This document shows positions 14,986-59,378 of a stretch of DNA of 64,000 nt, one piece after another. Position 1 is the stretch's first letter. Every line of letters starts with the position of its first letter. The translations under genes were made by a program, and so were the position numbers. Origin of the DNA: a virus (Duplodnaviria; Caudoviricetes); the IMG/VR virus record IMGVR_UViG_3300044537_000257, positions 1-64,000 of that record; one strand, given 5' to 3'. The notes below the pieces were generated by a model, which ran no database searches, had not been told where the DNA came from, and saw only the letters and a program-made list of their open reading frames with translations.

Positions 14986-16008
14986 ATGGAAACAGTTAGA
15001 ATCGCACCAGTTACTGATCAGTGGTTGCAGCATGAAGCACGTAAGTTTAACCGTAAGAAAATAGAGGAGTACCTGCAGCATTCGCCCCGGTTGGCACCGG
15101 CCACCTTACAGCAGTATCGATCATGTCTGCGCATCTTTGCCAAATGGATTCATGACTATTGCGGTAATAAAAAAATTATCGATCTAAAAATTAGGGATGG
15201 CAAGGCATATCAGGATTGGCTGTTAAGTCATAATGGCTCGACCAATAACATTAAGGTCAAGTTAGCCGCGGCTTCCGAACTTTGCGAGTACATTGAAAAA
15301 TATTACGAAGAAGAATACCCAGCGTTTAGAAATCCGATCCGCAAGGGACGTGAAGCTATGGTGCAGACGCCACGCAAAGAAAAGCATCCGATCACTCCAG
15401 AAGAATTTGAGCTATTAATTAAAACGTTAGAAAAGCGCCAGGATTATCAACGTCTGTGTTACTTAGTTTTGACTTACCAGACGGCCTGCAGACGAGCGGA
15501 ATCGGCCCAATTTGAGCGCCGAATAGCAAAGTATTCAGTGGGAGACATGCATTATTATCAAGATGCACAGGGGATGAACCATAATTATTTTTTGAGTAAC
15601 TCAATTCGATGCAAGGGTGCAGGTAAGCTAGGGAAGGTGCGCGAGTTTAAAATATCGACTGATACAATGCGCTATATCCGGCGTTGGGACAAGCAGCGTC
15701 GTGAGTTAGTGAATGGATTGGAACTAGGGGATGATGCTGCAAACTTATTCGTTCATATTGATCAAAGTGGTGTCACCGATTTAACACCAGCGGCATTTGC
15801 CTATTGGTTTTCTGATGATTTTAGCAAGATTTTGGGTCGTAATGTGCACCCACACGATCTTAGAACAACACGGGCAACAGACTTGGTAGTCCGTCAGCAT
15901 AAGCCAATTGAGGCGGTTAGTGTAATGATGGGTCATAATTCGACAGAGACGACTAAAACATTTTATGTGATCGACAATCGCAAGGACAGTGATGCCACAT
16001 TAATATAA
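14986..16008 (+). CDS. Second, stand-alone tyrosine recombinase (XerC-like, no arm domain)
   Basis: SAM-like N-terminus (LAPATLQQYRSCLRIF); catalytic R (ACRRAE), HPHDLR, GHNS, Y (TKTFY). Confidence 0.9.
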   Translation: METVRIAPVTDQWLQHEARKFNRKKIEEYLQHSPRLAPATLQQYRSCLRIFAKWIHDYCGNKKIIDLKIRDGKAYQDWLLSHNGSTNNIKVKLAAASELCEYIEKYYEEEYPAFRNPIRKGREAMVQTPRKEKHPITPEEFELLIKTLEKRQDYQRLCYLVLTYQTACRRAESAQFERRIAKYSVGDMHYYQDAQGMNHNYFLSNSIRCKGAGKLGKVREFKISTDTMRYIRRWDKQRRELVNGLELGDDAANLFVHIDQSGVTDLTPAAFAYWFSDDFSKILGRNVHPHDLRTTRATDLVVRQHKPIEAVSVMMGHNSTETTKTFYVIDNRKDSDATLI

Positions 16009-16091
16009 AAAAAGCCACCATTTGCATGGCAGCTAATCTCAGCAGATTAATTATAACATGGCTGATGCAAATCGGCGAGGGGTGAAAATGA

Positions 16092-16508
16092 GTGAAAGAG
16101 CTAACTAAGGCGGCCCTTGCGTGGCTAGACGATGAGTATATGAGATACACTAAAATCAATCACGATATTGCAGTGCGGAAACTAGAAATTGAGCATCCCT
16201 GGAAGCCCAACGATGACAATATCGGTGGCGGTCGTTCCAGTGTGATCACGCGGCCGCAAGAAAGCCTGGTATTAAAATATGATCAGGATAGGGTAATTAA
16301 TCGGCTGATTCAGTTACAGCGCGAGGTGGATGCCGCCAAAAGGCATATGGACGCGGAACAGTTAAAAATTTTTGAGATGCGCTATATTGGCACCAATTAC
16401 TATGACTGGGACACAATTGGTAGTCTGTTGCATTATGCGCACACGCCCATTTATCGCAAGCGATATAAATTACTTGAATTATTGGCCGAAGAAAAGGGAA
16501 TAATCTAA
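16092..16508 (+). CDS. ArpU/RinA-family late transcription activator
   Basis: DDNIGGGRSS...RYIGTNYYDWDTIG...IYRKRYKLLELLAEEKG; last early gene. Confidence 0.8.
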   Translation: MKELTKAALAWLDDEYMRYTKINHDIAVRKLEIEHPWKPNDDNIGGGRSSVITRPQESLVLKYDQDRVINRLIQLQREVDAAKRHMDAEQLKIFEMRYIGTNYYDWDTIGSLLHYAHTPIYRKRYKLLELLAEEKGII

Positions 16509-16564
16509 GTTGGTACTAGAATCGGTAGTTGTACCACTTAAAACCTGCTAAATTAGTATTATAG

Positions 16565-16639
16565 ATAAGTTAGTTTAAGGATGTCGTTAACCAAAATCTA
16601 AAAAAATTCAGTTCAATCGCAAGTCTTAAACTGATTTAT
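16565..16639 (+). ncRNA. Conserved structured RNA at the start of the late operon (copy 1)
   Basis: 16-bp outer stem; 48-nt core identical to 58777-58824. Confidence 0.6.
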
Positions 16640-16640
16640 T

Positions 16641-16670
16641 GGGAGCGCCCAGTATTGGGCGTTCCTTTTT
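16641..16670 (+). terminator. Intrinsic terminator after the late leader RNA
   Basis: GGGAGCGCCCA-gtat-TGGGCGTTCC-TTTTT. Confidence 0.75.
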
Positions 16671-16753
16671 GCGTACGTATGGCTACGTCTGTAGCACCGA
16701 GACAAAAATTTTCAGTGAATTAGAACATTGGTTGGCTGATAAGAAGAAACGTG

Positions 16754-16782
16754 AGCGTCGTGCTAAGAAGCATGGTGCTTTT
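16754..16782 (+). terminator. Second terminator-like hairpin
   Basis: AGCGTCGTGCT-aaga-AGCATGGTGCT-TTT (11 bp including G-U pairs). Confidence 0.5.
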
Positions 16783-16812
16783 AGTTTGGAGAAAAATAAG
16801 GAGGAATCAATT

Positions 16813-17082
16813 ATGGATTTTGGAGAAGCGCTTGAAGAATTAAAACGAGGTAATTGTGTTGCGCGTAAAGGTTGGAACGGCAAAGGCATCTTCATTAAAT
16901 TAAAAAAGGGAGAATCTTTGAACACTCCCAATAATCGTTTTAATGAGGTTATGACTCACGACTTCATTTATATTGACACGACTGGGCTACGCACGAACAA
17001 TCCGAATGCACCTATGGATCGAGTTCCATGGTTAGCTAGTCAAACTGACATGCTGGCTGATGACTGGGTCGTAGTCGAATAA
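16813..17082 (+). CDS. DUF2829 / Tad2-like cyclic-nucleotide sponge (anti-defence)
   Basis: MDFGEALEELKRGNCVARKGWNGKGIFI...PWLASQTDMLADDWVVV; GGAGG before ATG 16813. Confidence 0.8.
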   Translation: MDFGEALEELKRGNCVARKGWNGKGIFIKLKKGESLNTPNNRFNEVMTHDFIYIDTTGLRTNNPNAPMDRVPWLASQTDMLADDWVVVE

Positions 17083-17121
17083 CGATGACTAATTCCAATT
17101 AGACGGAGGTGTGGTGATTAT

Positions 17122-17916
17122 GTGATGACTAACGATAATCAGAAGAAAGCGGCTGTCGATTATGCTGCAGGGATGAAGTATAAGGATATTGCTGATAAGT
17201 ATGGTGTATCGCTCAACACGGTTAAGTCGTGGCGCAAGCGTAATGGTTGGTCGCGTGGTGCACCACCGATTAAAAAGGGTACACCCAAAAACAGTGAGAG
17301 GGTGCACCCTAAAAACGTGCCAAAGATTATCGAAGAATCGAATGCTACTGAAAAACAAAAGCTATTTGCACTGTATTATTTAGAACGATTCAACGGTACT
17401 TGGGCGTATATGAAGGCTTATAAAGTTGATGCGGACATAGCACGAGCAAGCGCCCCGCGATTGTTAGCAAATGTTAGCGTTAAGACTATGATTGATGAAC
17501 TCAAGAAAGAACAAGCGGCTGAGTTGCACATGACACAGCTAGATGTTCTTGCTGAGGCAGCCAAGCAAGTTAAGGCAGATATTGGGGATTATATCGAATT
17601 CGGTAGTGCTGACGAACCACTGGTTGATAAGCGCGGTCATAAAATTATTGATTCGAAAACAGGCAAGCAAAAGACCGCACACTTATCGCATGTTAATTTG
17701 CGCAATCAATCCCAAGTTGACACGTCCCTCCTTAAATCGGTGCACATTGGTCGAGATGGCGTCGTTGTTGAAATGTATGATAAACAAAAAGCAATGGAAA
17801 TGTTACTGCGGAATCTGCCTGAAACGATTGTTGATGATGGCAACGACGATGGGTTTATGGATGCGATGGATAAATTAGGTGATAAGGTCTGGGGTGATGA
17901 TGATGGTACAGACTAG
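17122..17916 (+). CDS. terS: Terminase small subunit A (HTH plus Terminase_2)
   Basis: [23 protein letters not shown]; [22 protein letters not shown]. Confidence 0.85.
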
Positions 17917-19186
17917 ACGACGCACAACTGTAACGTTTAAATTTGCACCCTTTTCGCGTAAACAGGCACAAGTCCTAACCTGGTGGCATCATCCCAAGAC
18001 ACGTAACTATAAGGCAATTGTCTGCGATGGTAGCGTTCGTGCTGGTAAGACGGTGATCATGTCACTTTCTTATGTGATGTGGTCAATGCAAGCTTATAAT
18101 GGACAACAATTTGGCATGGCCGGTAAAACGATTGGATCATTTCGGCGTAATGTCTTTAGACCACTTAAACAGATGCTGATAGGCCGCCATTATCAAGTGA
18201 TTGAGCACCGAACAGACAATATGTTTGAGGTTCGTAAGGGTAATAAAGCCAATTATTACTTTTATTTTGGCGGTAAAGATGAAGCATCCCAGGACCTTGT
18301 CCAAGGTGTTACACTTGCTGGCTTCTTTTTTGACGAAGTTGCGTTAATGCCCCAGTCATTTGTTAATCAGGCTACAGCACGTTGTTCTGTTGATGGCGCC
18401 AAGCTTTGGTTTAACTGCAACCCAGAGGGCCCTTACCATTGGTTTAAAGTTGACTGGCTAGACAAACTGGCTAAAAAGCATGCATTGCATATTCATTTTA
18501 CTATGGATGATAATCCATCCCTGTCGGACGAACGACGCGAGTATTATAGATCAATGTATACTGGCATTTTCTATTCACGCTTTATTTTAGGCCAATGGGT
18601 TTTATCTGATGGTATTGTTTACGATAACTTTGATAAGTCTAAAATGATTGTTCCAGGGCAACCCAGTCCAATAACTAAATACTATGTGTCATGTGATTAC
18701 GGCACACAAAACCCCACGGTATTCTTGCTGTGGGGTCTTTGTGCTGGCACATGGTACTGTTTAAAGGAGTATTACTATGATGGGCGCCATAGTACGCGGC
18801 AAAAGACTGATGATGAGTATGCAAGCGATTTGGACAATTTTGTTGGTGATATCCGTGCCAAGATAATCATTGATCCGTCTGCAGCATCATTTATCGCTAA
18901 GCTACGCTCTAAAGGCTATCAGATCATTAAGGCTGACAATGATGTTCTTAATGGTATCCGTGAGACGCAGACGGCGATGAACCTTGGCAAAATTAAGTTT
19001 GTTGATGGTTTAAACAGCCTATTTAAGGAATTTGCATCATACGTATGGGATGAAAAGGCGTCTCAGCGTGGTGAGGATAAAGTTGTGAAGGAGCATGATC
19101 ATGCTATGGACGCCATGCGTTATTTTGTGATGCAAGTTATTAAACAGCGCAATAAGGCACGATTGATCAAGAATACGTACTATTAG
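17879..19186 (+). CDS. terL: PBSX-family terminase large subunit A
   Basis: [36 protein letters not shown]. Confidence 0.95.
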
Positions 19187-19197
19187 GAGGTGTTATT

Positions 19198-20628
19198 ATC
19201 CAAATTACAGGTACAGTACAAGGGGCTGGCTCAGTTGATGAGCGCGGACTATTCTTTTATCCAGCGGAAGTCGATTTAACCGAACAGGATTTAAAGAACT
19301 TTATTGATTTTCACAATGGCAGTATGACCAAAGAATACAAAACGAATTATAAATTTTACTCCGGCAATCATGATGTGTTACACGCAAAGCCACGTGGCGG
19401 CAACCGCCCAGACAACCATATTGTTTATAATCTATGTAACTACGCCGTTGATTCGTTCAATGGCTATTTTATTGGCATCCCGCCTAAAATTGGATTCGAC
19501 GATCAAAAGGCTAACGCTGAGTTGCAAAGCTGGCAGGACTTAAATTCGTTTCAGGATCAGCTATCTGAACTGAGTAAGCAAGCGGATATTTATGGACGTT
19601 CTTATTTGCTCGCTTATCAAGATGAGGATAGCCAGACACGGGTAGCAGTTGTCAACCCACAGCAGGCGTTTATGATTTACGATGACTCAATCCAGCACAA
19701 ACGGATCGCGTTCGTACGTTATTGGTTTAATGACGATCAGCAGGTGCAAGGTGATATCTACTTTAAAGATCAGTCATATCATTTTGGCAATGATGGTCAT
19801 TTTGGCGATGAGACACCTAATCTGTTTCATATGGTACCAGCGATTGAATTTGTCGAAAATGAGGATCGCCTTGGTATCGTAGGACAAATTGAATCGTTGA
19901 ATGATGCGCTTGATCGGGCCATGAGTCAAAAGGCTAATCAGAATGAATACTTTGACAATGCCTATATGCTTATCCGCGGTATGCAATTGCCGGAAGACGA
20001 AGAAACAGGCTTACCAAAGCTTAATTTAGATGGCAACCAGATTATTTATGCGCCAGATGCAACAGACGGGGATGCGAGTTTCCTGACTAAGCCCGATGGC
20101 GATCAGATGCAAGAAAATCACATTAATCGATTGATTGATTCCATTTTTCAGGTGGCTAAGGTTGCCAACTTGAAAGATGAGTCGTTTGCCGGCGATAGTT
20201 CTGGTATCGCGATCAAGTACAAACTGCTGCCGATGCAGAACGCGGCTGTTAATAAAGAGCGCAAGTTTACGCAAGCGTTACGACAGTTTTATGAGATCGT
20301 CTTTGCTATCGCGTCTCCACAGCTCAACATTAAAGACTTATCCTTTAAATTTACCCGAAACTTACCCGTCAATTTAGCCGACGAAGCAGATACTGCTGGT
20401 AAACTAGCCGGCATTGTTAGCCAAGAAACGCAGCTTAAAACTTTATCAGTTGTTGATGATCCACAAGCTGAGATTAAAAAAATGGATAAGGAAAATCAAG
20501 CTAAAGTAAAAGCGGCTATGTCAGCCAGCCTGACCGACTATGAAGGGAGCAAATCAGATGAGCAAGAAAAGCAAGTTGACAGCAATCAGCGACAAGCACC
20601 AAGAAAAGGGTCGAGCACTGACCGTTGA
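19198..20628 (+). CDS. SPP1-family portal protein, probably initiating at ATC/ATT (19195-19200)
   Basis: Portal motifs; 42 open codons upstream of ATG 19324 conserved synonymously in copy 2; AGGAGG at 19185-19190. Confidence 0.9.
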   Translation: MQITGTVQGAGSVDERGLFFYPAEVDLTEQDLKNFIDFHNGSMTKEYKTNYKFYSGNHDVLHAKPRGGNRPDNHIVYNLCNYAVDSFNGYFIGIPPKIGFDDQKANAELQSWQDLNSFQDQLSELSKQADIYGRSYLLAYQDEDSQTRVAVVNPQQAFMIYDDSIQHKRIAFVRYWFNDDQQVQGDIYFKDQSYHFGNDGHFGDETPNLFHMVPAIEFVENEDRLGIVGQIESLNDALDRAMSQKANQNEYFDNAYMLIRGMQLPEDEETGLPKLNLDGNQIIYAPDATDGDASFLTKPDGDQMQENHINRLIDSIFQVAKVANLKDESFAGDSSGIAIKYKLLPMQNAAVNKERKFTQALRQFYEIVFAIASPQLNIKDLSFKFTRNLPVNLADEADTAGKLAGIVSQETQLKTLSVVDDPQAEIKKMDKENQAKVKAAMSASLTDYEGSKSDEQEKQVDSNQRQAPRKGSSTDR

Positions 20629-20827
20629 TGATGTGATCAGTGATCTGATCCAGGCCAGAAATGATGGCCACCTAGAAGGAATTGCCGTTGTCTGTCAATA
20701 TGTTAATGGTGATGATAATACCGTTAGTTTTGGCGGGTGGGCAACTAATGCCGACTCTAAGATCACTACTTTTAGCCTGATGGGTGGTGTCTCGCAGGCA
20801 TTACATGACATTGCAGGAAGTAACTAA
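20559..20827 (+). CDS. Hypothetical protein between portal and MuF (absent in B)
   Basis: 89 aa from MSKKSK, RBS AAGGGAG. Confidence 0.6.
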
Positions 20828-20829
20828 TT

Positions 20830-22545
20830 ATGGCACGTAGCTACTGGGAAGAACGCGAGCATCAAGAACAGAGCTGGATAAGCCGCAATATGCGTAATGA
20901 TGCCGATTTAAATAAACAATTGCAACAAATGTATGCTGACTCACTAAACGATATTAACAGTCAAATTGATCAGTTTTATATGCGTTATGCCGGTGCTAAC
21001 GGCATAACAAAGCAAGAAGCAATGAAGCGTGTGGCTGCTGAGGATGTGCAAGCTTTTAGTAAGAAAGCCAAGAAGCTTGTAGCATTTAAAGACTTTTCCA
21101 AGGAAGCTAACGAGCAGCTCAAGCTTTACAATGCTACTATGCGGATCAACCGACTTGAAATGCTTAAGTCTCAAGTTGGCGAACAGCTGATTGCACTTGG
21201 AAATGAGCAGCAAGCTGTTCTACAGAAAAAGTTTACCGCTGATTATTTGGACGAGATCAAGCGACAAGCTGGGATTCTTGGGCAAGACCGCAATGAAGAT
21301 TTAGTCGGCCGAGTTAATGCAGTCGTTAATGGGTCATGGCAAAAAGCAACTTGGTCTAGCCGTTTATGGGACAGTATGGCTGAATTACAAGCAACGATCG
21401 GTATTCAACTTAATCGTTTTATGGTGCAAGGACTAAATCCACGTGTTATTGCACGGCAGTTAAAGCCACTACTTAGTGAGACGGTACAGAACCGTACCGC
21501 CATTGCCGAGCGATTGGCAAGAACAGAGTCGGCTAGGGTGCAGGACGCTGCCAGCATGGCTATGTTTAAAAAGTACGGCGTTAAACAAGTCAAATGGGTT
21601 GCTGAGCCTAGCGCTTGTAAGCAATGCCGTGATATCTCTAGTTATAACCATGGCATTTATCAGCTTGATGATGTACCGATGATTCCAGCGCATCCGAATT
21701 GCCGTTGTGCTAAAGCAGCATACACAGCCAATGTTGATTTAACTGGCGAAAAGTCAGAAAGTAATGAACTTGTTAATGAGTTAAAGCAATCAAATTTATT
21801 TGATATGTATGGGAAAACACTGGGGAATAAAGCTGTTGATAAATTAGCAGGAGCACCGGATATTATTAAAAGACAGTATGAAACTCAAGGTAAGAACCTT
21901 TACTACACTACTAAAGATGCAAGTAAGCCGTGGACTAATGCAAACGGCATTCATATGACTTCTAAGCAATTTACTGCTGAACACCAAGAAGAAATGCAGC
22001 AGTTCTTCCATGAAACGGCGCATTATTTGGATTCAAAACCGTCTAAAATTGGAGCTTTACAGCCAAGTAGAACGGTTGAATTAAAAGAAACGCTACAAAA
22101 CGATTTTCATAAATACGTTTATGGTGATTTACCAACTCTGGAAGGATTAGGCAAACGGCCAAGAAAAAATTCAAAGAATTATGCAGAATGGGTACAGAAA
22201 AAGGATGATTGGTATTCTGCTACACAAGAAGCTGAAAAAGCATTTGAGTTTAAAATTGCTGAATGGAAAAAACTGGATTCTAAAATTACATCTGATTTAT
22301 CAGACATGATTGAAGCGGTGGATCCAATTAAATATAACAAGCCAATGAAATCTGGTCATGGGTATTCTTATTGGCAGACAGCCGGAAATCAAGAAATGGA
22401 ATTTTTTGCTGAATTGAGTTCTGAGCTAGTGGCAAACCCAGAAGCGCTTAAGCTTACTAAAGAAGTTTTCCCGAACGCAGTTAAAAAGTATGAAGAGATT
22501 GCAGCAAAAATTATTTCTAGAACCGATTTAAAACACGTTGATTGA
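20830..22545 (+). CDS. Minor capsid protein MuF/SPP1-gp7 with C-terminal metallopeptidase toxin-like domain
   Basis: RLARTESARVQ...PAHPNCRC MuF core, then FFHETAHYLD (HExxH)...EFFAEL. Confidence 0.85.
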   Translation: MARSYWEEREHQEQSWISRNMRNDADLNKQLQQMYADSLNDINSQIDQFYMRYAGANGITKQEAMKRVAAEDVQAFSKKAKKLVAFKDFSKEANEQLKLYNATMRINRLEMLKSQVGEQLIALGNEQQAVLQKKFTADYLDEIKRQAGILGQDRNEDLVGRVNAVVNGSWQKATWSSRLWDSMAELQATIGIQLNRFMVQGLNPRVIARQLKPLLSETVQNRTAIAERLARTESARVQDAASMAMFKKYGVKQVKWVAEPSACKQCRDISSYNHGIYQLDDVPMIPAHPNCRCAKAAYTANVDLTGEKSESNELVNELKQSNLFDMYGKTLGNKAVDKLAGAPDIIKRQYETQGKNLYYTTKDASKPWTNANGIHMTSKQFTAEHQEEMQQFFHETAHYLDSKPSKIGALQPSRTVELKETLQNDFHKYVYGDLPTLEGLGKRPRKNSKNYAEWVQKKDDWYSATQEAEKAFEFKIAEWKKLDSKITSDLSDMIEAVDPIKYNKPMKSGHGYSYWQTAGNQEMEFFAELSSELVANPEALKLTKEVFPNAVKKYEEIAAKIISRTDLKHVD

Positions 22546-22548
22546 TCG

Positions 22549-22573
22549 AGCGATGAAGTTCATCGCTATTTTT
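22549..22573 (+). terminator. Hairpin after MuF
   Basis: AGCGATG-aagtt-CATCGCT-ATTTTT. Confidence 0.55.
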
Positions 22574-22649
22574 ACGCCCTTTTTCCCGTGCTGCAGGGCT
22601 AAAAGAACGACCGGAGATTGTCTCCCTAGACGTTAAACTGGAGGGCCTT

Positions 22650-23258
22650 ATGGCAGATGTAGTAGACGAAAAGAAGGATCAAGTCCAAAAGCCAGCTGAA
22701 AATGAAGAAAATAACAATGAATCCACTGAAAATACTGATAATGCGCAGTCAGATGATAACAAAGCGGATAAAATTGTTGAAAAACTTCAAAAGCGGATTG
22801 GCGAAGAACAAGCTAAGAAAAATGAGTATAAGGATCAACTTGATGATGCGTTAAAACGAATTGCCAGATTAGAAAAGGGTGAAGACCCTGACAAACCAGC
22901 ACCAAAGGACGAAAAAGATGAACGAATTGCGGCCCTTGAAGCACAGATCAAGCGTCGTGATATCACTGAACAAGCCCGAGATGTGCTAGTCAGCAGTGGG
23001 ATGAACGTGCCATCTGATGTGTTAGACCGGCTGGTGTCGGATGACAACAAGGCAACGCTGGCCAACGTTAAATCTTTTGTGACTTATATCCAATTGGTGC
23101 GTGAAGATGCACGCAAAGAACTCTTAGCTGGAACCACGCCGAAGGATGCACCAACCGGCGGTACCACGAAGAAGTTAAAGGATATGTCTTTAGCTGAGCG
23201 TAGTCAGTTAGCATCCGAGGATATGACGCTTTATCAACAATTGCGCCAACAAAAATAG
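22650..23258 (+). CDS. Capsid scaffolding protein (DUF4355-like)
   Basis: Acidic N-terminus, coiled coil, ELLAGTTPK. Confidence 0.8.
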   Translation: MADVVDEKKDQVQKPAENEENNNESTENTDNAQSDDNKADKIVEKLQKRIGEEQAKKNEYKDQLDDALKRIARLEKGEDPDKPAPKDEKDERIAALEAQIKRRDITEQARDVLVSSGMNVPSDVLDRLVSDDNKATLANVKSFVTYIQLVREDARKELLAGTTPKDAPTGGTTKKLKDMSLAERSQLASEDMTLYQQLRQQK

Positions 23259-23274
23259 AAAGAAGGAAACTTAA

Positions 23275-24288
23275 ATGCCAGAATTTACTGGAGCAACCGA
23301 CAAATCGAAATTAATTGAACCCGTCGTATTTGCTGATTATATTATCGAAAAATCTACCGCCACTAATCGCTTATTAACTAGTGGTATTTTAACCAACGAC
23401 CCATTGATTCAAGCACAATTATTACAAGGTGGAACGTTTATTACGATTCCCGCTATGATGCCACTCGGCGCCGATGTCCAAACGTGGAATGACAGCAAAG
23501 ATATTGCAGTTAACGACTTGACGACTGAAAGCTCTAACGCAATTAAGATGTACCAAGCACAGGCTTTCGGCTACACTGATTTCGGTGCGTTAACGACGGG
23601 ATCACCGGTGGCAGAAGCCATCGCTGGACAGTTCAGTACCTACTGGAACATTCAAGATAACAAGTTGATCATTGCCGTATTAGCTAACGCATTTAAAAAT
23701 GCTGATTTACTAACGGCTAAATCCTATGGTACAGCAACACCTGTTGAATTAAAGGCTGGCGATTTCTTGGCTGCAATCTCGCGTATGGGAGATGTAGCGT
23801 CACCGACATTAGTTAAATTAATCGTTAACTCAGCAACTTTAGGTGCAATGCGTGAGCAGAACTTGATCGATGATATTCAACCATCTACAGGTGGTGCGCC
23901 AATTTCGACTTACAACAACATGCAAATTATTACCGATGATGCAATTCCGCTGGCAGATGATGGCACAACTGATGCTTATATTACCGCTAACGGCGCAATT
24001 GCCTATGGCTTAGCGTCACCAGCTAATGCAGTTGAAACAAAACGTGATGCGCTAGGTAATGGCGGTCAAAACGCAGTCATCAACCGCCGTGTATTGTCCA
24101 TGCAAGTTAAAGGGACCGGCTTTACGGATACAACTAAAGCAGCAAACGTTGGTATCAACACTTATAATGAATCTTCCACGTCATTATTTAGCATTGTCGG
24201 TGATCCACGGAATATTGGGGTTGTCGATTATCGCTTTAAAATTGATCCTAAGTTTGTAGTTGGTGGCATCAACAGCCCAAAAGCGTAA
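23275..24288 (+). CDS. Major capsid protein
   Basis: 337 aa after the scaffold; paralog starts at 63629. Confidence 0.9.
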   Translation: MPEFTGATDKSKLIEPVVFADYIIEKSTATNRLLTSGILTNDPLIQAQLLQGGTFITIPAMMPLGADVQTWNDSKDIAVNDLTTESSNAIKMYQAQAFGYTDFGALTTGSPVAEAIAGQFSTYWNIQDNKLIIAVLANAFKNADLLTAKSYGTATPVELKAGDFLAAISRMGDVASPTLVKLIVNSATLGAMREQNLIDDIQPSTGGAPISTYNNMQIITDDAIPLADDGTTDAYITANGAIAYGLASPANAVETKRDALGNGGQNAVINRRVLSMQVKGTGFTDTTKAANVGINTYNESSTSLFSIVGDPRNIGVVDYRFKIDPKFVVGGINSPKA

Positions 24289-24455
24289 CGCCACCGGCTG
24301 ATGGTGGCGCCACAAACTTTGATCCAGCCGGAGAAACAAAACCGACTGACGCTAATACTGTCGCTGAGATTACCGCCTGGTTAGACGCTCATGGTATTGA
24401 TCATACGGGTAAGACGACTAAGGCGGATTTACTAGCCCTAGTGCCAGCTAAATAG
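24276..24455 (+). CDS. -1 frameshift extension of the capsid (57 aa, HeH/LEM-like)
   Basis: C CCA AAA slippery site at 24276-24282, 6-nt spacer, hairpin CGCCACC/GGTGGCG; -1 frame open to TAG 24455. Confidence 0.8.
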   Translation, partial: PKSVTPPADGGATNFDPAGETKPTDANTVAEITAWLDAHGIDHTGKTTKADLLALVPAK

Positions 24456-24466
24456 GTGGTGATTGC

Positions 24467-24832
24467 ATGGATTATGTAACTGAGATTAGACCGTTATTAA
24501 TGCTTGATGATGCGGTGTTTAACGCTCAAGAAGAGACTATCAATAAGATCACATCTAACTCGGCAGCACGATTATTGATTAAGCTCAAGGGGGTCGCAAA
24601 AGCGGTACCTGATGAACTTGGTTACATTGTACTAGAAGTATCCATTAAGCGATTTAACCGGCTTAAAAACGAGGGCATGGCGTCCTATGGTCAAGAGGGC
24701 GAATCGATCACTTATAGTGATGATGACTTTGCCGAATTTGCCGATGACATTGCTGACTGGATCAATGCTAACGATGATCAGCGCAATAAGTCTGGTGTTC
24801 GTTTTATCAGTGGATACGGGGGTGGTAGCTGA
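24467..24832 (+). CDS. Head-tail connector (SPP1 gp15-like)
   Basis: IVLEVSIKRFNRLKNEGMASYGQEGESITY. Confidence 0.85.
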   Translation: MDYVTEIRPLLMLDDAVFNAQEETINKITSNSAARLLIKLKGVAKAVPDELGYIVLEVSIKRFNRLKNEGMASYGQEGESITYSDDDFAEFADDIADWINANDDQRNKSGVRFISGYGGGS

Positions 24833-25146
24833 TGCGCTACGACGCACTAGTCACCTTTGTCCATGAAGGTGCCGGCAACGTTTATAATCCGGTCACAGGC
24901 GAGTATGACGAAGATAAAACTTCATTTACCCGTTTGGCTAATGTGACTGATGTGGGTACTAGCCGCGCTATGGAGCTGTTTGGCGATCTGGACACGTCCA
25001 ACAAAGTTTTGCGCTTTGCTAACGGCGTAAAGTTGGCTGATTGGACGTATTTAACACTACCTGACAGTGATGCGCATTATGTAAAAGTAACGACACGGAA
25101 GCCACTTAAAAGCAATACTTTGATTGTAGGTGAGAGTCATGGCTAA
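24832..25146 (+). CDS. Head closure/stopper protein
   Basis: Position; MRYDALVTF...YNPVTGEY. Confidence 0.65.
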   Translation: MRYDALVTFVHEGAGNVYNPVTGEYDEDKTSFTRLANVTDVGTSRAMELFGDLDTSNKVLRFANGVKLADWTYLTLPDSDAHYVKVTTRKPLKSNTLIVGESHG

Positions 25147-25486
25147 GATGAAAATTTTAGGCTCAAAGGAATTAGCACGTGGGCTTGAAAAGCGGATTGG
25201 CATGGACGGCATTAAAAAGCTGGTCACAGCTAAAACGACACAGCTACACGGTGTCGCCGTGCAAAAAGCACAGTACACCAAAGGCTACTCCACAGGTGCA
25301 ACACGCCGCTCGATAGGCATGCAGATCTATGACGGTGGTTTGACGGGTGAAGTTGGTATGGGGAAAGATTATGATCCGTATCTTGAAAAAGGAACTCGGT
25401 TTATGGAAGCTCAGCCGGCACTAAAACCAGCTTATAATCAAGTTAAAGGTGCTTATATTCGGGAAATCCGTAACATTATGAAGTGA
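25130..25486 (+). CDS. HK97 gp10-like neck protein
   Basis: TGATRRSI...YLEKGTRFMEAQPALKPA. Confidence 0.85.
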   Translation: MRVMAKMKILGSKELARGLEKRIGMDGIKKLVTAKTTQLHGVAVQKAQYTKGYSTGATRRSIGMQIYDGGLTGEVGMGKDYDPYLEKGTRFMEAQPALKPAYNQVKGAYIREIRNIMK

Positions 25487-25487
25487 G

Positions 25488-25886
25488 GTGTCTGCTATTA
25501 AGTCAATTGATCAAGACCTTTTCGACACGTTATATGCGCTATCTCAGTCTTTAAATTACAAAACTTATGATGTGCGGCCACCTGAAAGTGCTGTTTATCC
25601 GTTTGTACAAATTGGCGACGTGCAACTCGTACCACGAGCGGCTGGTGATCGATTAGTTGGATCATTATTTACCACAATCGAATTATTCGGCTGTAGGAAG
25701 CAACGAAAGCTTTTGTCGGAAATGACGGAAGCTATTTTTATGCGCTCAATTAATTTGAGACGCACAACGAGTTACGGTATCGCTGCTAACGTCAAGGGAT
25801 GCTCAAAGCAAATGATAAAGGACACCTCAGTGCCGAATACAACATTATGGCATAGCATCATCGAATTAGAATACAGAATTTTATAA
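25488..25886 (+). CDS. Tail completion/terminator protein
   Basis: YDVRPPESAVYPFVQIG; position before the MTP. Confidence 0.7.
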   Translation: MSAIKSIDQDLFDTLYALSQSLNYKTYDVRPPESAVYPFVQIGDVQLVPRAAGDRLVGSLFTTIELFGCRKQRKLLSEMTEAIFMRSINLRRTTSYGIAANVKGCSKQMIKDTSVPNTTLWHSIIELEYRIL

Positions 25887-25898
25887 GGAGGGCTATAA

Positions 25899-26459
25899 AT
25901 GGCCAATGAATTTACTGCCGAACAAGGCATGGATAAAGTTATTTTTCTGCGGGAATTAGCTAAAGCTGCAGAACAGTCAGCAATGCGTTTAGCACTGCAA
26001 ACAACACATACGTTAACAATCAGCCGTGGTAGTGACTCAACTGCCACAAAAGACGGGAATGTTGCTACGACATCACCGGCTGAAACCGAATTAGAAGTTG
26101 AAAATATCGCTTCTGACGATGAAATGAATGATCTGTTATGGCGTTCGGTCAAAGACAACTTACCGGTAGAAGCTTGGGAAGTTAATCTGGCTAAAAAGAA
26201 CGCCTCAGGTCAATATTTTGCCCGCTATATGCGTGGCAAGGTTAATGAAATGGAATCCGATAACGATGCAGATGACAACTCAACAGGTGATGCATCATTC
26301 TCGATTGACGGTGTACCTGTTGATGGTTGGGTCACTTTATCACAAGACACGAAAGACGCGTTATCCTATGCGTTCCGTGGCTTAGATGCGGTAACTGAAG
26401 TTGACCCTACAGGCAATGGCGTTGCTGCAGATACCCCAACTCCAGCACCAGCTGGATAA
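25899..26459 (+). CDS. Major tail protein (TP901-1-like)
   Basis: QGMDKVIFLREL...TATKDG. Confidence 0.85.
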   Translation: MANEFTAEQGMDKVIFLRELAKAAEQSAMRLALQTTHTLTISRGSDSTATKDGNVATTSPAETELEVENIASDDEMNDLLWRSVKDNLPVEAWEVNLAKKNASGQYFARYMRGKVNEMESDNDADDNSTGDASFSIDGVPVDGWVTLSQDTKDALSYAFRGLDAVTEVDPTGNGVAADTPTPAPAG

Positions 26460-26526
26460 ATAATATAACTGTCGCCTAAGAAATACACAATACCTAGTGG
26501 GGCGGCTTTTAATGGAGGAAAATATA

Positions 26527-26877
26527 ATGCAATTAAAAATTAATGGTAAAGATGTTGAATTTAAGTTTGGAATTCGCTTTTTGCGTGAGTTAGACAAACA
26601 TTATTACATGGAAAAGAACGATATTAAATTTGGCTTGGGCTTAGATTTATCGTTAACACAAATCTTAGCTGGTTACCCTGAATATTTAGCCACTTATCTT
26701 TATTGCGCTAATAAGGCGATGAAGGTCAAAGTCACGCAAGACGATATTGACGAATACCTTGAAAGTCTAGATGATCTAGAACCAATTTTTGATGAAGTAA
26801 TTAAGGAACTATCTGAGGGGAACGCCACAAAGTCAAAAGTGACAGCCGCACAGGCGGCACTGAAACAAAACGAATAG
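26527..26877 (+). CDS. Tail assembly chaperone G
   Basis: MQLKINGKDVEFKFGIRFLRELD. Confidence 0.8.
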   Translation: MQLKINGKDVEFKFGIRFLRELDKHYYMEKNDIKFGLGLDLSLTQILAGYPEYLATYLYCANKAMKVKVTQDDIDEYLESLDDLEPIFDEVIKELSEGNATKSKVTAAQAALKQNE

Positions 26878-26924
26878 GACGAAAATTAAAGCCTGAAGAT
26901 TACAGTGAAAATGTTTATCACAGT

Positions 26925-27305
26925 ATGATCGTAACTGGCTTACGATTATTTGGATTGACAACTGTCGACGAGATCGGCCAGTTAACACTCGATGAATATG
27001 ATCTTTTGCTGGAAGCTGCTCAGCTACGGAATATTGATCAAGAACGCTTAATCCACATACAAGCGTGGGCTAATCAGATGGTACAAGCAACTGATCGTAG
27101 CGGCAAACGCGCCAAGTTTCGCAAGTTTAAGGAATTTTACGACGACGAAAAGATCATTCGAAAAATCACCTTGCAGCACGCTAATGGCCGCGTAATTGAC
27201 GAAAAGCAACGTCTTAAAGATGAACAACGGCGTAAGGCTGAGATTGTTAATCAGCGATTGAACGAATATTATCACAGGAAGGAGGAAAACAATGGAAAGC
27301 TATAG
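26925..27305 (+). CDS. Tail assembly chaperone T (GT partner)
   Basis: IGQLTLDEYDLL...AWANQMVQA; -1 frame relative to G and open upstream of 26925. Confidence 0.7.
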   Translation: MIVTGLRLFGLTTVDEIGQLTLDEYDLLLEAAQLRNIDQERLIHIQAWANQMVQATDRSGKRAKFRKFKEFYDDEKIIRKITLQHANGRVIDEKQRLKDEQRRKAEIVNQRLNEYYHRKEENNGKL

Positions 27306-30300
27306 TGTAACAGCGGTGCTTAGCGCCGTTGATAGCAGTTTTAGTAGTACCATTCGTAATGCCTCTAATGCTGTGGACGCTTTTCAGTTGGGCACTAGAA
27401 CAAGCTTAGGCAACGTCGGTAAAACGGTGGAAGGAATCGGCTCTAAGTTAACTAAGGGCGTTACATTGCCGTTAGGTTTAATGGCCGTAGCTGCGGCTAA
27501 AACATCAATGGATTTTGGCGCTCAAATGAGCCGAGTACAAGCCATTTCTGGTGCGACCGGCAAGCAGATGGGTGCGCTTAAAAATCAAGCAATTAAGTTA
27601 GGGGCTAAAACGGCCTTTAGTGCAAAGCAAGCAGCTGAGGGCATGGAAAACTTAGCATCGGCCGGCATGAACTCTCAGCAGATTATGAAAGCCATGCCTG
27701 GAGTTCTTAATTTAGCGGCTGTTTCCGGTGGTGACGTTGCAAAAGCGGCTGATAACATGTCAACATCACTAAACGCTTTTGGTTTATCAGCAGGCAAGTC
27801 CAGCCATGTTGCCGATGTATTCGCGGAAGCTGCGGCTAAAACGAATGCAGAAGCGAGTGATATGGGCGATGCCATGAAGTATGTCGCACCACAAGCCCAC
27901 GCTGCTGGTCTTTCACTCGAAGAGACTGCAGCAGCAATCGGTGTGTTATCAGATGCAGGTATTAAAGGCAGCACGGCTGGTACTACTTTAGCCCAAGCAT
28001 TGATGCGTGTTCAGAGTCCGTCAGCTGAGGCTAAAAAAGCAATGCAGCAAATTGGATTTAGCGCTTACGATGCCAACGGCAAAATGAAACCATTAGCTAA
28101 GCAGGTCTCCGAATTAAAAGGCAAGTTAAAAGGGATGACGGATGAGCAGAAGCAGAACACTTTAGCCACGATTTACGGCATGGAAGGCGGTCGGGCGATG
28201 AACGTCTTGCTGCAAGCACAGAGTGGTAAGCTATCGTCACTGACTAAAGCCTTGAAGTACTCTAAAGGTTCTGCGGCGGATATGGCTAAGATCATGCAGG
28301 ATAATGCAAAATCTGCTGTCGAACAGTTAGGTGGCGCCTTTGAATCTGCCGCCATTGCAATTGGCGATAAAATGGCACCAACTATACGGCGCGTTGCTGA
28401 TTTAATCTCAAATTTAATTGGTAAGTTTCTCGATGCTAGTCCGGCTGTACAAAACTTCATTTTAGTTGCTTTGGGTATTGCCGCTGCGGCAGGCCCTATT
28501 TTAGTTGTGATCGGTAAAATGATGCAGTTTACGGCAAGCACAAAAACAGCAATGGCTGCGTTGCGATCGATGAACGGTGAAGCTAAGCTAACTGGTGGCT
28601 TATTAAAGGCACTGCCTTGGCTAGTTGTAGCTGCTGGGATTGCTTTATTAGTGGCTGGCTTTGTTAAACTATATAAATCATCGGCTCAATTTCGTGATTT
28701 TGTTAACGATATTGGATCAGCACTTAGAAGTATTTTTGGCCCAGCTGTTGAGTGGGCTGGGAACTTACTAGGTGGGTTTGCAGACTGGTTTAAAAAAGCA
28801 TCTACATCAATGACTGATAGTCAAAAGGCGATTACTGCAATCGTGTCAGGGTTGTCTGTCCTAGGAGCGACTTTGGCCATAACACATGGTGGATTAGGTA
28901 AGTTAGTTGCCAAGTTATTTAGCTTTGGTGACGCCGCTAAAAAACCGACTGCTCCTATTCAGGGTCTTGGATCATCAATCCTAAAATTAGGCGCTAGTAT
29001 TGGTATTGCTGCAGCTGGCATCGGCACATTTATTTTTGCTGTTGCTGAGTTAGCTAAAACGGGCGACGCTGGTGTTGTAACACTAACCGCCGTAACTATA
29101 AGCATTGCTGCTTTAGCTGCTACGTTTGCATTATTAGGGCCAAGACTGACGGCTGGTGCCGCTGGTATGGTTGCGTTTGGTGTGACGGTAGCGGCTGTTG
29201 GCGTTGGCATTGGTGCGGCTGCGTTGGGTATTGCGGCTTTGATTGTCGCCTTTACCGGTTTAACAACTCACGTGAATGCCATTGTGCCAACATTTGCTGC
29301 TGTCGGTACTGGATTTATAGCTATGATGACAATTATGCTAAATGGTGTGATTTCTAACGCACCACTGATTGCACAAGCATTTATTGCACTAGGTACTGCT
29401 ATTTTAACTGCGATTAATACTTTAGCACCACAGATCAGCCAGACGTTTTTGCTTTTACTAACGACCTTAGTCAATACAGTTGTAGCAGCAACGCCGTTAA
29501 TCGCTAATGGATTTATGCAGATGCTAATGACGATTCTTAATACAATTTTGACTTACACACCGCAAATCGCAAGTAGTTTCATGCAGATTTTATCTGCACT
29601 ACTTAATGCGATAGCAACTTACATGCCACAAATTGTAGCTGGCTTTGCGAACATCTTAATTAATTTTCTTAATACTCTAACCAGTTATGTACCTCAGATT
29701 GCTGCTGCCGCAACGAATCTATTAATCGCAATCATGGATGCTATTGGTAATAATGCACCAGCAATTATTGCTGCATTTTTCGCAATGGTCGGTCAATTTG
29801 GCGAAGCGATTGTGCAACAACTGCCGATTGTGATTCAGTTGATGACCGCGTTACTTACAGCATTAGTTGCGACTGTGGTCAGTTACTCAAGCTCGTTCTT
29901 AAAGATCGGGGGTTTACTGATTCAATCACTCGGCGCTGGTTTGATGGGTAAAAAAGTCGATGTGGTCGGTAAAGCGACCGACATTATGAATGAAGCTGGT
30001 AGCAATGCGACTAAGACTGGGATGTCAGCCTTTGATTCTGCTGGTGGTAACAGTGCCATCAAGGCTTTGCAGGCAATTGCTAACAAGAATGGTAATGCTA
30101 GAACAACTGGTGGCGCTTTAGCTAGCTCTGCGGCTGGTGGTATTACTGATAAAAACGGTACTTTAAAAAATGCCGGTACAACAAATGGTACTAATGCAGT
30201 TAGCGGATTAAAGTCAAAATTAGGTCAAATGAAATCAACCGGTTCTTCGTTAGGCAGCAATGCGGCTAGCGGAATTTCATCTAAATCGGGTAGTGCAAGA

Positions 30301-30852: not shown

Positions 30853-30876
30853 AATTAAAATTTGAGGTGAAGTAAT

Positions 30877-33066: not shown

Positions 33067-33081
33067 GAAGGGGGATAAACT

Positions 33082-40821: not shown

Positions 40822-41021
40822 TGTGCAAAATTTGTGCAAAATGATTTAGTTTTATATCTGTCTTTATCTGTAAATAAAAAATAAGAACCTTACTAAACGT
40901 TGATTTAGCAAGGTTCTTATTTTTTATAATTTTGTTTAACTGCTTATAAAATGGAGGCGGCGGGCATTTTGAATATTGATGTGACGCTACTTTAACGGGC
41001 CTTGTGCAAAGTTTGTGCAAA
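40822..41021. other. attP-like junction of integrase 2: arm repeats on both sides of a tmRNA-type core
   Basis: TGTGCAAA x2 at 40822/40833 and at 41003/41014; core TGGAGGCGGCGGG at 40952-40964 (minus: CCCGC-CGCCTCC-A). Confidence 0.7.
40876..40925. terminator. Bidirectional terminator hairpin in the att region
   Basis: AAAAAATAAGAACCTT...AAGGTTCTTATTTTTT. Confidence 0.7.
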
Positions 41022-56798: not shown

Positions 56799-58181
56799 AT
56801 GCAAGCAACACTACACCCATATCAACGGTATTCAGCAACTTGGATCGAGGAACATCCATACTGCGCCTTACTGTTAGATATGGGACTTTAACTAGGCAAA
56901 ACCTTATCCACGTTGACGGCACTGCACGAATTGATGAAAGATTTTGAGTTGATCGATAAAACACTAGTGATCGCACCACTTAAAGTTGCTATCGAGACTT
57001 GGCCGGCCGAGCTTAAAAAGTGGGACGCCTTCCATGATTTCTCCTGTTCCGTGATCACGGGTAAACCCGCCAAACGATTAGCTGCTTTAGACCAACCCGC
57101 CGACCTTTATATCATTAACCGAGAAAATGTAGTGTGGTTGGCCGAACTTTATAAAAAGCAGTGGCCATTTAAAACAGTGGTGATCGATGAGCTATCCAGC
57201 TTTAAATCTAGCAAGTCCAAGCGGTTTAAAGCTTTACGTAAGGTTCGACCATTAATGGATCGCGTGATTGGGCTAACAGGGACACCAGCGCCTAACACCT
57301 TAATGGATCTTTGGCCACAAATCTATTTATTGGATGGTGGCCAACGTTTAGGCAAGACGATCACGGCATATCGCAATCGATATTTTTATCCGGCATCCTC
57401 ATCGGGTCATGTTGTTTACAGTTGGGCGCTTAAGCCCGGCGCCGAGGATGAGATCTATAATGCCATCGCTGATATTTGTGTCAGCATGAAGGCCAAGGAC
57501 TATTTAAAATTGCCGCAGCGGATTAATCAGACGATAATGGTGACCTTAAAACCTAAAGAGCGACAACAATACGACGAGCTGGAAAAGTCCTTAGTATTGG
57601 AGTTAAACGGGACTGAGGTCATGGCCGCCAATGCGGCAGTTTTAACCAATAAATTACTGCAAATGGCTAACGGTGCAATTTATGATGATGACCATAAAGT
57701 CCAATTGATCCACAACGCCAAGTTAGATGCTTTGGAGCAAATTATCGAGGAGGCAAATGGTCAGTCGGTGTTAGTGTTTTACAATTATCAGCATGATCTA
57801 GATCGGATCAAGCAGCGACTGCCACTAGCCCATAAATTGGAAACCGGCGATGTCGAAAAGTGGAACCACGGTGAGATCCCAATCTTATTAGCCCACCCGC
57901 AGTCATCGGGACACGGGCTTAACTTACAGCAGGGTGGCCACATTATTGTCTGGTTTAGCTTGACATGGTCTTTAGAGTATTATCAACAGGCTAATGCCAG
58001 GTTAGACCGACAAGGCCAAACCAAGCCCGTGACTGTTTACCATCTAGTCACCAAGGGCACCCTAGACGAAAGAGTAATGACCGTTTTACAAAGCAAAGCC
58101 GCTGGCCAAGATGAGCTTTTAAACGCTGTCAAAGCCAGGATTAAATCAATTAGGGGTGAAATAGGTGGAAAAATTAAGTAA
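56799..58181 (+). pseudogene. SNF2-family helicase with an in-frame TAA inside Walker A
   Basis: MQATLHPYQ...LLDMGL*LGKT; VIDELS; GHGLNLQ; TAA at 56889-56891. Confidence 0.8.
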
Positions 58182-58689
58182 AGAGCAGTTAAGTATCATC
58201 ACTTCAGAGGTTATTAAAAATTTGGACCACGAGAAACGTAAACGGGTGACTGCTGAAAAAGATTCACGTTTACGTAACACACGGATTTTAGTGCGATCAT
58301 ACCCCAAGCTTAAAGCGCATACGGCAACACAGCCGGAGGTGTTTCTTGATGACGATATCTATGAGATGATCACCGGTGTCAAAATCAGCGATCACGAACT
58401 CGCAAAATATCACATTAAAACCAAGCATTTGCTGGAGTATGTCGATACAATTTTAGCTGCCTATAAACAGGTTTGTCTTGGTGGTGACGAGAGTGATAAG
58501 CGTCGGTGGCAGATTATGTATGACACGTATTTAAGCGATCATCGTTTACGTATGGCGGATCAAGCAAATAGGTGGAATGTAGACAAAAGCACGATTAGCC
58601 GGGAGTGCGCAAAAGCAATCCAAGAGTTATCGGTAACCATGTTTGGGATAGCGGGGTTAGCTGATTTTTTATCTGACTGGATCGCCTAG
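58165..58689 (+). CDS. Late transcription activator (ArpU/RinA-like position)
   Basis: RLRNTRILVRSY; C-terminal HTH VDKSTISRE; precedes the late promoter. Confidence 0.7.
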   Translation: MEKLSKEQLSIITSEVIKNLDHEKRKRVTAEKDSRLRNTRILVRSYPKLKAHTATQPEVFLDDDIYEMITGVKISDHELAKYHIKTKHLLEYVDTILAAYKQVCLGGDESDKRRWQIMYDTYLSDHRLRMADQANRWNVDKSTISRECAKAIQELSVTMFGIAGLADFLSDWIA

Positions 58690-58765
58690 CCCATGCAACA
58701 AATCCGCACCCAAATGCGTATGAATAAATGATATTATGATATTGTCAAAATAAACTGATGACAGG

Positions 58766-58840
58766 GCTAGCTTAACTAAGGATGTCGTTAACCAAAATCT
58801 AAAAAAATTCAGTTCAATCGCAAGCTTTAGTCAAGCAAGT
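58766..58840 (+). ncRNA. Conserved structured RNA at the start of the late operon (copy 2)
   Basis: 48-nt core identical to copy 1, closed by a stem of different sequence. Confidence 0.6.
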
Positions 58841-58890
58841 CGAGTCCCTCCAAACCAATTTTTGACACAGTTTAATTATAGTTGCCGCTT

Positions 58891-58919
58891 AGGAGCGTCC
58901 AGTAATGGGCGTTCTTTTT
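58891..58919 (+). terminator. Intrinsic terminator after the late leader RNA
   Basis: AGGAGCGTCCA-gtaa-TGGGCGTTCT-TTTT. Confidence 0.7.
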
Positions 58920-58943
58920 ATACATATTTAGCCAGAAAGCGAG

Positions 58944-59378
58944 GTGGTAAGAGTGGGACTAACGGTTAAACAGCAAAAATTTATCGACGCTTTTATTGAG
59001 CAGGGTAATGCCACCCAAGCCGCTATCAGCGCTGGCTACAGTAAAAAAACAGCAGCACAACAGGGCGCAGAAAACCTTAAAAAACCTTATGTTAAGGCTG
59101 CAATCGATGATAGGATGGCTAAAATTGAGTCGGACAAGGTTGCCGGCCAAAAAGAAGTTATGGAATATCTGACTAGGGTATTGCGCGGCAAAGAAACCGA
59201 GACAGTGGTCACGCCTAAGGGCTTAGTTATTGATGATGTACCGCCAAAAATATCGGACCGGAACAAAGCAGCGGAATTGATCGGTAAGCGACACCAGATG
59301 TGGACTGATAATGTTAATGTCAATTCCGGTGATATCAAGATTACAATTGGCGGAGATGATAAAAATGGCATTGATTGA
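58944..59378 (+). CDS. terS: Terminase small subunit B
   Basis: LTVKQQKFIDAFIEQGNATQAAISAGYSKKTA. Confidence 0.9.
   Translation: MVRVGLTVKQQKFIDAFIEQGNATQAAISAGYSKKTAAQQGAENLKKPYVKAAIDDRMAKIESDKVAGQKEVMEYLTRVLRGKETETVVTPKGLVIDDVPPKISDRNKAAELIGKRHQMWTDNVNVNSGDIKITIGGDDKNGID

Follow-up and report, generated by a model that had tools for sequence, protein, structure and literature searches.

The 64,000-nt stretch of phage DNA analysed here (the window) holds two prophages in tandem, and the same short element stands at the head of the late operon in each. We asked what this element is and what it might do. Prophage 1 reads, in order, ArpU/Alt-like late regulator (phrog_36), element, Tad2-like gene, terS and terL; prophage 2 reads phrog_1558 protein, element, terS and terL (Table 1). 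The product of the regulator gene directly upstream of the element in prophage 1 also matches phrog_2198 and phrog_248. Its counterpart in prophage 2 is presumed, from its position, to be the late regulator; the product is HTH-like at its C-terminus, with a weak match to HTH_38. For terS of prophage 2, the GTG at 58953, behind the ribosome-binding site, is more likely to be the start codon than the first in-frame GTG at 58944. The flanking genes had originally been described as unrelated, and by BLASTP the two regulators are indeed mutually unrelated, as are the two terS proteins; but both upstream genes occupy the late-regulator position, and both terS proteins belong to Terminase_2. Comparison with INPHARED phages returned no close relative of the two phages and no blastn match to the element. 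A second tyrosine recombinase gene lies in the middle of prophage 1 (14986-16008), just upstream of the late regulator, and the Tad2-like gene is the first gene past the leader in prophage 1, with no counterpart there in prophage 2.

Table 1. Features of the two late leaders, the prophages that carry them and the CRISPR loci that match them. Positions refer to the window unless another locus is named.
Feature	Position	Strand	Basis or remark
Prophage 1	integrase 140-1312 to lysin near 40630
Late regulator gene, prophage 1 (ArpU/Alt-like, Ltr-type)	16092..16508	+	phrog_36, E 8e-20
Palindrome GGTAC-N14-GTACC, presumed regulator binding site	16512..16535	+	just after regulator stop codon
Shared -10 block, TGnTAAATT then TATTAT, likely late promoter (predicted), prophage 1	16546..16562	+	conserved in every regulator context
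Hairpin RNA copy 1, short type	16564..16640	+	fold; covariance-model match 99.7 bits; covariation
Invariant 48-nt core, copy 1	16576..16623	+
Intrinsic leader terminator, copy 1 (predicted)	16641..16671	+	11-bp stem (7 GC pairs), U5 tract
TAC(A/G)TA region	16672-16685; 58920-58929		also in L003, L027, L028, L029, L065, L083, L085
Tad2-like (DUF2829) gene	16813..17082	+	PF11195, E 1e-23
terS, prophage 1	17122..17916	+	Terminase_2, E 6.5e-30; phrog_2606
Prophage 2	integrase 40992-42134 to past window end
Presumed late regulator gene, prophage 2	58165..58689	+	phrog_1558, E 3e-43
Two tandem extended -10 words, likely late promoter (predicted), prophage 2	58729..58745	+	sequence
Hairpin RNA copy 2, long type, extra closing helix	58743..58867	+	folds; covariance model
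Invariant 48-nt core, copy 2	58777..58824	+
Intrinsic leader terminator, copy 2 (predicted)	58891..58919	+	-15.6 kcal/mol, z = -3.5
terS, prophage 2	58953..59378	+	Terminase_2, E 3e-34; RBS 58942-58948
Core-matching spacer	L024 8938-8967 (G001:C33 62937-62966)		protospacers at window 16578-16607 and 58779-58808
Self-targeted sites in strain 257-1	G001:C50 48567-48596; G001:C46 50911-50940		array L024 6794-13220

The two copies share a core of 48 nt. As the original prediction had noted, this string is identical in both; it occurs exactly twice in the window, both times on the + strand, with 0 matches in 100 shuffles, and there is no further copy elsewhere in the 72-kb record. Each phage has one copy. 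Copy 1 folds as a single hairpin, in which an outer stem of 17 bp leads to a bulged inner stem capped by an A-rich loop of 19 nt; together with its terminator this hairpin reaches -36.8 kcal/mol (z = -6.1). In copy 2 the apical part recurs on another stem (58760-58846, z = -3.4; the covariance model scores 58761-58845 at 107.9 bits), and there is an added closing helix in which 58743-58750 pair with 58860-58867, a long form that also occurs in L027. The fold thus agrees with the bulged inner stem and A-rich loop that had been proposed, and the closing stems differ yet pair, also as proposed: from one copy to the other, six pairs of the stem differ on both sides with pairing kept. Strong intrinsic terminators are predicted after both copies, again in line with the earlier description. 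The copy 1 terminator hairpin (16641-16666, -18.2 kcal/mol) abuts the element hairpin with no spacer and is the top terminator-like site within 15900-35800, about 20 kb of late genes; the copy 2 terminator is homologous to it and follows after a short spacer. No ORF of at least 40 aa overlaps either copy.

To find relatives of the element we scanned IMG/VR, reference genomes and metagenomes with patterns and then applied a covariance model. This gave 14 distinct variants, two of them in the genome of Loigolactobacillus jiayinensis 257-1 and the rest in IMG/VR contigs and two metagenome samples. In an alignment fitted to the covariance model, standard pairs fill 97.6% of pair cells, and 12 of the 24 pairs are changed on both sides among the 14 variants. 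None of 500 shuffles matched the observed pairing and covariation, and sliding the pairing partners lowered the paired fraction to 30-52%. The stem varies through compensatory changes, while the apical part of ~45 nt, comprising the bulged stem and the A-rich loop, is nearly constant; two core anchors were fixed by the search patterns, so that the "invariant" columns are partly invariant by construction, and one DNA run has a core variant outside these anchors. There are two core types, the C type differing from the A type at about ten core positions; strain 257-1 has one element of each. One inner-stem pair is U-A in some sequences and C-G in others (split 8 versus 6), and one variant (L055) is a hybrid with a C-type stem and an A-type loop. 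The hairpin measures about 80 nt in the short type and about 125 nt in the long type. Because G-U pairs are frequent in the stems, and would become C-A mismatches on the opposite strand, the structure is one of RNA from the + strand and not of DNA.

These data establish a conserved structured RNA that stands first in phage late operons and is uncatalogued: Rfam 15 gave no match at gathering thresholds across the whole window, including the element, and only chance-level matches, all far below gathering, in E-value mode. They also bear out the original prediction of a functional RNA. Recent exchange with no wider conservation does not account for the identity of the two copies, since the 14 distinct variants show compensatory changes in five regulator contexts. 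So far, the element is narrow in distribution, being confined to phages of Loigolactobacillus from fermentations, digesters and compost. DNA runs with the element are labelled in their run records as sludge, digester, compost, bovine gut and food. Covariance-model searches found it in 1 of 151 Lactobacillaceae genomes, 1 of 151 Lactobacillales genomes and 1 of 8 genomes of the genus, one genome overall; these searches used strict filters on samples of genomes, so sparse finds of this kind do not establish absence. A looser two-anchor pattern in IMG/VR returned mostly chance matches; L030 and L017, too, are matches by chance.

CRISPR arrays of three Loigolactobacillus species hold spacers against this virus record, which identifies Loigolactobacillus as the host genus. 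A type II spacer of L. jiayinensis 257-1 matches the core at 30 of 30 positions in both window copies. The flanks of the protospacers have the consensus TTRG at -8 to -5, equivalent to a 3' N4CYAA on the other strand; copy 1 carries the consensus inside its stem, and copy 2 lacks it. Two other Loigolactobacillus species (G152:C105, L086; G153:C28, L087) have several spacers against prophage 2 in arrays of type I-E and type II. At one of the element-bearing loci of 257-1 (L029; G001:C46, about 2870-2930, - strand), a stop codon interrupts the terS behind the C-type element after ~20 codons, which may mean that this prophage is defective.

The surroundings of the element are constant too. In every variant the order is regulator gene, sites, -10 block, hairpin, spacer, terminator, conserved word and late gene, and this order is kept in five regulator contexts, of phrog_36, phrog_248, phrog_2198 and phrog_1558 types. 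Sites specific to the type of regulator, either the GGTAC-N14-GTACC palindrome or direct repeats, lie just past the regulator stop codon. The palindrome of prophage 1 recurs after homologous regulators in L027, L033, L055, L083 and L085, and by analogy with described Ltr sites (PMC3753634) is presumed to be the binding site of this regulator type. The -10 block that follows contains one to three -10-like words across the variants, several with a TGn extension, and is also found in Latilactobacillus phages; in prophage 2 it consists of two tandem extended -10 words (TGATATTAT and TGATATTGT), which recur in L028, L054, L065 and L031. Both blocks are likely to be the late promoters of their prophages, judged by sequence. 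The spacer between hairpin and terminator ranges from 0 to 45 nt. The predicted leader terminators, at -9 to -18 kcal/mol with U-tracts of four or five in the variants examined, are mutually homologous, with compensatory changes. A conserved TAC(A/G)TA word stands right behind the U-tract of every leader terminator, ahead of the first late gene; its position corresponds to that of the mapped RinA-dependent 5' end of staphylococcal phages.

This layout is that of the late-control (Ltr) regions of staphylococcal and enterococcal phages governed by RinA, ArpU or LtrC, which likewise have regulator-specific repeats, a terminator-containing block common to phages whose regulators differ, and terS (PMC3152322, PMC3753634). 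At the loci studied here the regulator gene lies upstream of terS, regulator-specific repeats follow its stop codon, and a terminator is predicted between the two genes. By contrast, a conserved structured RNA does not figure in the block as the Ltr papers describe it, and these papers map the late start downstream of the terminator, whereas here the block is a covarying hairpin whose apical part is near-invariant.

The late leader of phage lambda consists of the promoter PR', the 6S RNA and the terminator tR', and is controlled by Q; StxS, a small RNA of Stx phages, derives from 6S RNA. Lambda and the present phages have in common a regulator gene directly upstream and, by prediction for the present phages, a promoter, a short transcript and an intrinsic terminator before the late genes, and 6S RNA and StxS illustrate that a terminated leader can itself serve as a small RNA; a role in trans for the element described here is our proposal. 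The two systems differ in their regulators, Q in lambda and Ltr-type proteins here (phrog_36, phrog_248 and phrog_1558), and share no likeness of sequence or fold. None of the regulators had a match to a Q-family Pfam entry.

Sibling phages separate the leader from its hairpin. Several have the same palindrome, -10 block and terminator position, with other content where the hairpin sits. An IMG/VR phage (L085; 8560-8800, - strand) has an Rfam tRNA match of 42.9 bits, whose anticodon loop measures 8 nt, and a tRNA-like piece besides; Latilactobacillus phage TMW 1.1397 P1 (OP455938; L083, 1350-1560) has a tRNA-like piece in the slot. The RNAs in L083 and L085 lie between promoter block and terminator, as the hairpin does, and have a cloverleaf-like fold unrelated to it; one of the sibling pieces has D- and T-arms and was not called by ARAGORN. 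In L033 the slot is empty, but this phage is not a clean control, having a consensus promoter and a non-terS gene past its terminator. Because the siblings share the frame with other cargo or with none, the frame of promoter and terminator exists independently of the hairpin. The swapped contents make the late leader look like a slot for interchangeable RNA cargo, as far as these sequences tell, and passage of polymerase through the leader terminator is unlikely to be due to the hairpin.

We tentatively favour the reading that the element, set in the late-operon leader, encodes a small non-coding RNA that is released at the terminator and whose conserved apical part acts on a host factor. We favour it because the promoter-terminator frame exists in siblings that lack the hairpin. 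The late regulator would activate the promoter, and many transcripts would stop at the leader terminator, so that the hairpin would be set free in a stable RNA, ~100-170 nt long, resembling lambda 6S RNA and StxS. Within this RNA, the covarying stem would merely display the conserved apical part, which may bind a host rather than a phage factor and serve late in infection as a sponge, a decoy or a modulator. Transcripts bound for terS would pass the terminator independently of the hairpin, by means of the regulator itself or through leakiness. We also count in favour of a small RNA that the core is unchanged among A-type phages despite its 30/30 match to a host CRISPR spacer.

A food-fermentation metatranscriptome yielded a 168-nt contig that consists of adapter, window positions 58755-58888 with one mismatch, and adapter. 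The 134-nt insert, which begins 10 nt past the TATTGT word and stops 3 nt short of the terminator stem, would fit a discrete leader RNA; at a depth of ~4, in a strandless contig and with DNA carry-over possible, it is a hint only. Run X20 gave no other high-identity cover within 58100-59400, an absence that we did not count as evidence. Nor did we count run X19, which covers 58654-58803 and 58822-58926 and is labelled RNA-Seq but is probably DNA. As for a partner, the proteins common to all five element-bearing phages are only those of the integrase and lysis regions, and the lack of a shared dedicated phage protein points to a host partner. Words complementary to the element occur in the window at chance level, and no antisense site of at least 23 of 26 nt was found in four genomes of the host genus; that these searches gave no target in trans counts against the small-RNA reading.

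The original prediction had offered two functions, a decoy small RNA and a put-like antitermination element. The main rival to a small RNA is thus a cis-acting antiterminator of the kind represented by HK022 put and Tn916 canT, in which the nascent hairpin would make polymerase resistant to the leader terminator and to later ones. We regard this as possible, if rather unlikely. RNA antiterminators that act in cis are known from mobile elements of Gram-positive bacteria, and put, canT (PMC11658703) and conAn (PMC8191782) share with the element their RNA nature, their residence on mobile DNA and a location after a promoter and ahead of terminators. All are orientation-specific, and neither put nor canT needs a protein encoded by the element itself. 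The position of the hairpin, after the promoter block and before the strongest terminator among the late genes, is consistent with an antiterminator role, as are its strand-specific conservation at the RNA level and the missing phage protein partner in the five element-bearing phages. However, siblings with tRNA-like cargo or none keep the terminator at the same place, and read-through in these phages cannot need the hairpin. In addition, the copy 1 hairpin abuts its terminator with a spacer of 0, the late operon of about 23 kb holds few convincing internal terminators, and the element is a single long bulged hairpin, as opposed to the two stem-loops of put.

The hairpin could instead be a passive structure of the late mRNA, protecting it against 5'-exonucleases or offering a site for RNase III, with the terminator insulating the late genes from early and middle transcription. 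The long stems, almost perfectly paired over 12-17 bp and placed close to or at the predicted 5' end, would suit this role, and in the Ltr systems the terminator between regulator gene and terS does block read-through (PMC3753634, PMC3152322). A stabiliser or an RNase III site requires structure, however, and not a near-invariant apical sequence of 45 nt with a fixed A-rich loop; nor does it readily explain why the core is retained despite matching a host spacer. We therefore consider a passive role unlikely.

Mapping in staphylococcal phages argues for yet another arrangement, in which the hairpin is the 3' untranslated end of a regulator transcript from a middle promoter and the true late start follows the terminator. 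In phi11 and 80alpha, RACE placed the RinA-dependent 5' end after the terminator, 23 nt before terS (PMC3152322), with the RinA sites more than 155 bp upstream, a gap that the authors found puzzling (PMC3152322, PMC3753634). By analogy, this mapping speaks against the small-RNA reading, since the hairpin would be the 3' end of the regulator gene and not a product of the late promoter; the TAC(A/G)TA word behind every leader terminator points the same way. Against it, the regulator sites described here end ~10-15 nt before a conserved extended -10 block, as is typical of promoters that depend on an activator, and in copy 2 only ~22 nt separate the U-tract from the ribosome-binding site, with no good -10 there. 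The sole RNA fragment also starts past the -10 block rather than within the regulator gene, which is weak evidence. On balance, a 3'-end origin of the hairpin seems decidedly unlikely.

Strain 257-1 bears on a possible role in counter-defence. Both of its resident element-bearing prophages are targeted, at sites with the consensus flank, by perfectly matching spacers of its own CRISPR array, and there is also a match, at 29 of 30 positions, between a spacer and its own A-type element. Tolerance of perfect self-targeting spacers implies that Cas9 of this strain is inactive or inhibited, which makes 257-1 a candidate place to seek an anti-CRISPR; a tracrRNA anti-repeat was not found near its cas9 (G001). 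That the strain keeps two element-bearing prophages despite these spacers, one of them directed against the hairpin core, is the basis for supposing that the late leader is a slot for interchangeable counter-defence RNAs, namely tRNA-like decoys in the siblings and, here, a hairpin that would block a host nuclease or a Cas effector. We hold this to be highly doubtful. Self-targeting keeps a counter-defence reading alive, at low odds; that the RNA is itself the inhibitor is conjecture.

A more specific proposal of the same kind is that the element mimics a defence RNA, either a CRISPR repeat in the manner of a Racr, an option raised speculatively when the sequence was first read, or a type III antitoxin. 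The premise of the CRISPR option was correct, in that the A-type core shares two words of 7 and 9 collinear nt with the type II-A repeat of the L. casei group, a match reached by 1 of 5000 shuffles, and the tolerance of self-targeting in the one identified host strain would suit an inhibitor. For the C type, however, the match is at chance; the C-type variants keep the fold and lose both words, leaving half of the variants without them. Furthermore, the hosts are Loigolactobacillus, whose type II and type I-E repeats are unrelated, with no likeness to the core beyond that of shuffles, and no array with both words was found in 401 genomes of the family. An antitoxin mimic fares no better: the element is single-copy and not a tandem array, and ToxN was found in 0 of 8 genomes of the genus, which is weak evidence as control genomes were equally silent. 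Mimicry of either kind is thus unsupported and very improbable. That the element has no function of its own, its identity being due to recent gene conversion between co-resident prophages, is barely credible. The complete identity of the two 48-nt cores within a single cell would suit it, but this core also turns up in other genomes and metagenomes, in different contexts, and compensatory changes maintain the fold in a second core type.

Three further candidates were rejected. A leader peptide could be read from the A-type core (ATG plus five codons), but the C type has ACG at this position. A DNA-level site (pac, cos or a palindrome) was discarded because the pairing uses G-U, the apical stem is no DNA palindrome and the terminases differ. 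For a terminator/antiterminator switch, the AU-rich 3' arm of the hairpin has no complementarity to the GC-rich arm of the terminator.

The switch that turns on the late genes of temperate phages of Gram-positive bacteria is only half understood. Published work on RinA and other Ltr proteins left two puzzles, a conserved block that contains a terminator and the distance from the regulator sites to the mapped start, more than 155 bp. The element gives that block a covarying RNA in a defined layout of promoter block, hairpin and terminator. A leader with a terminator is an architecture of a known kind; this particular RNA, and the notion that the leader is a slot for cargo, are new. The practical value is modest, as the family is narrow and its function is one that we infer. 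If the slot reading is true, however, late leaders would be a systematic place to seek regulatory and counter-defence RNAs of phages.
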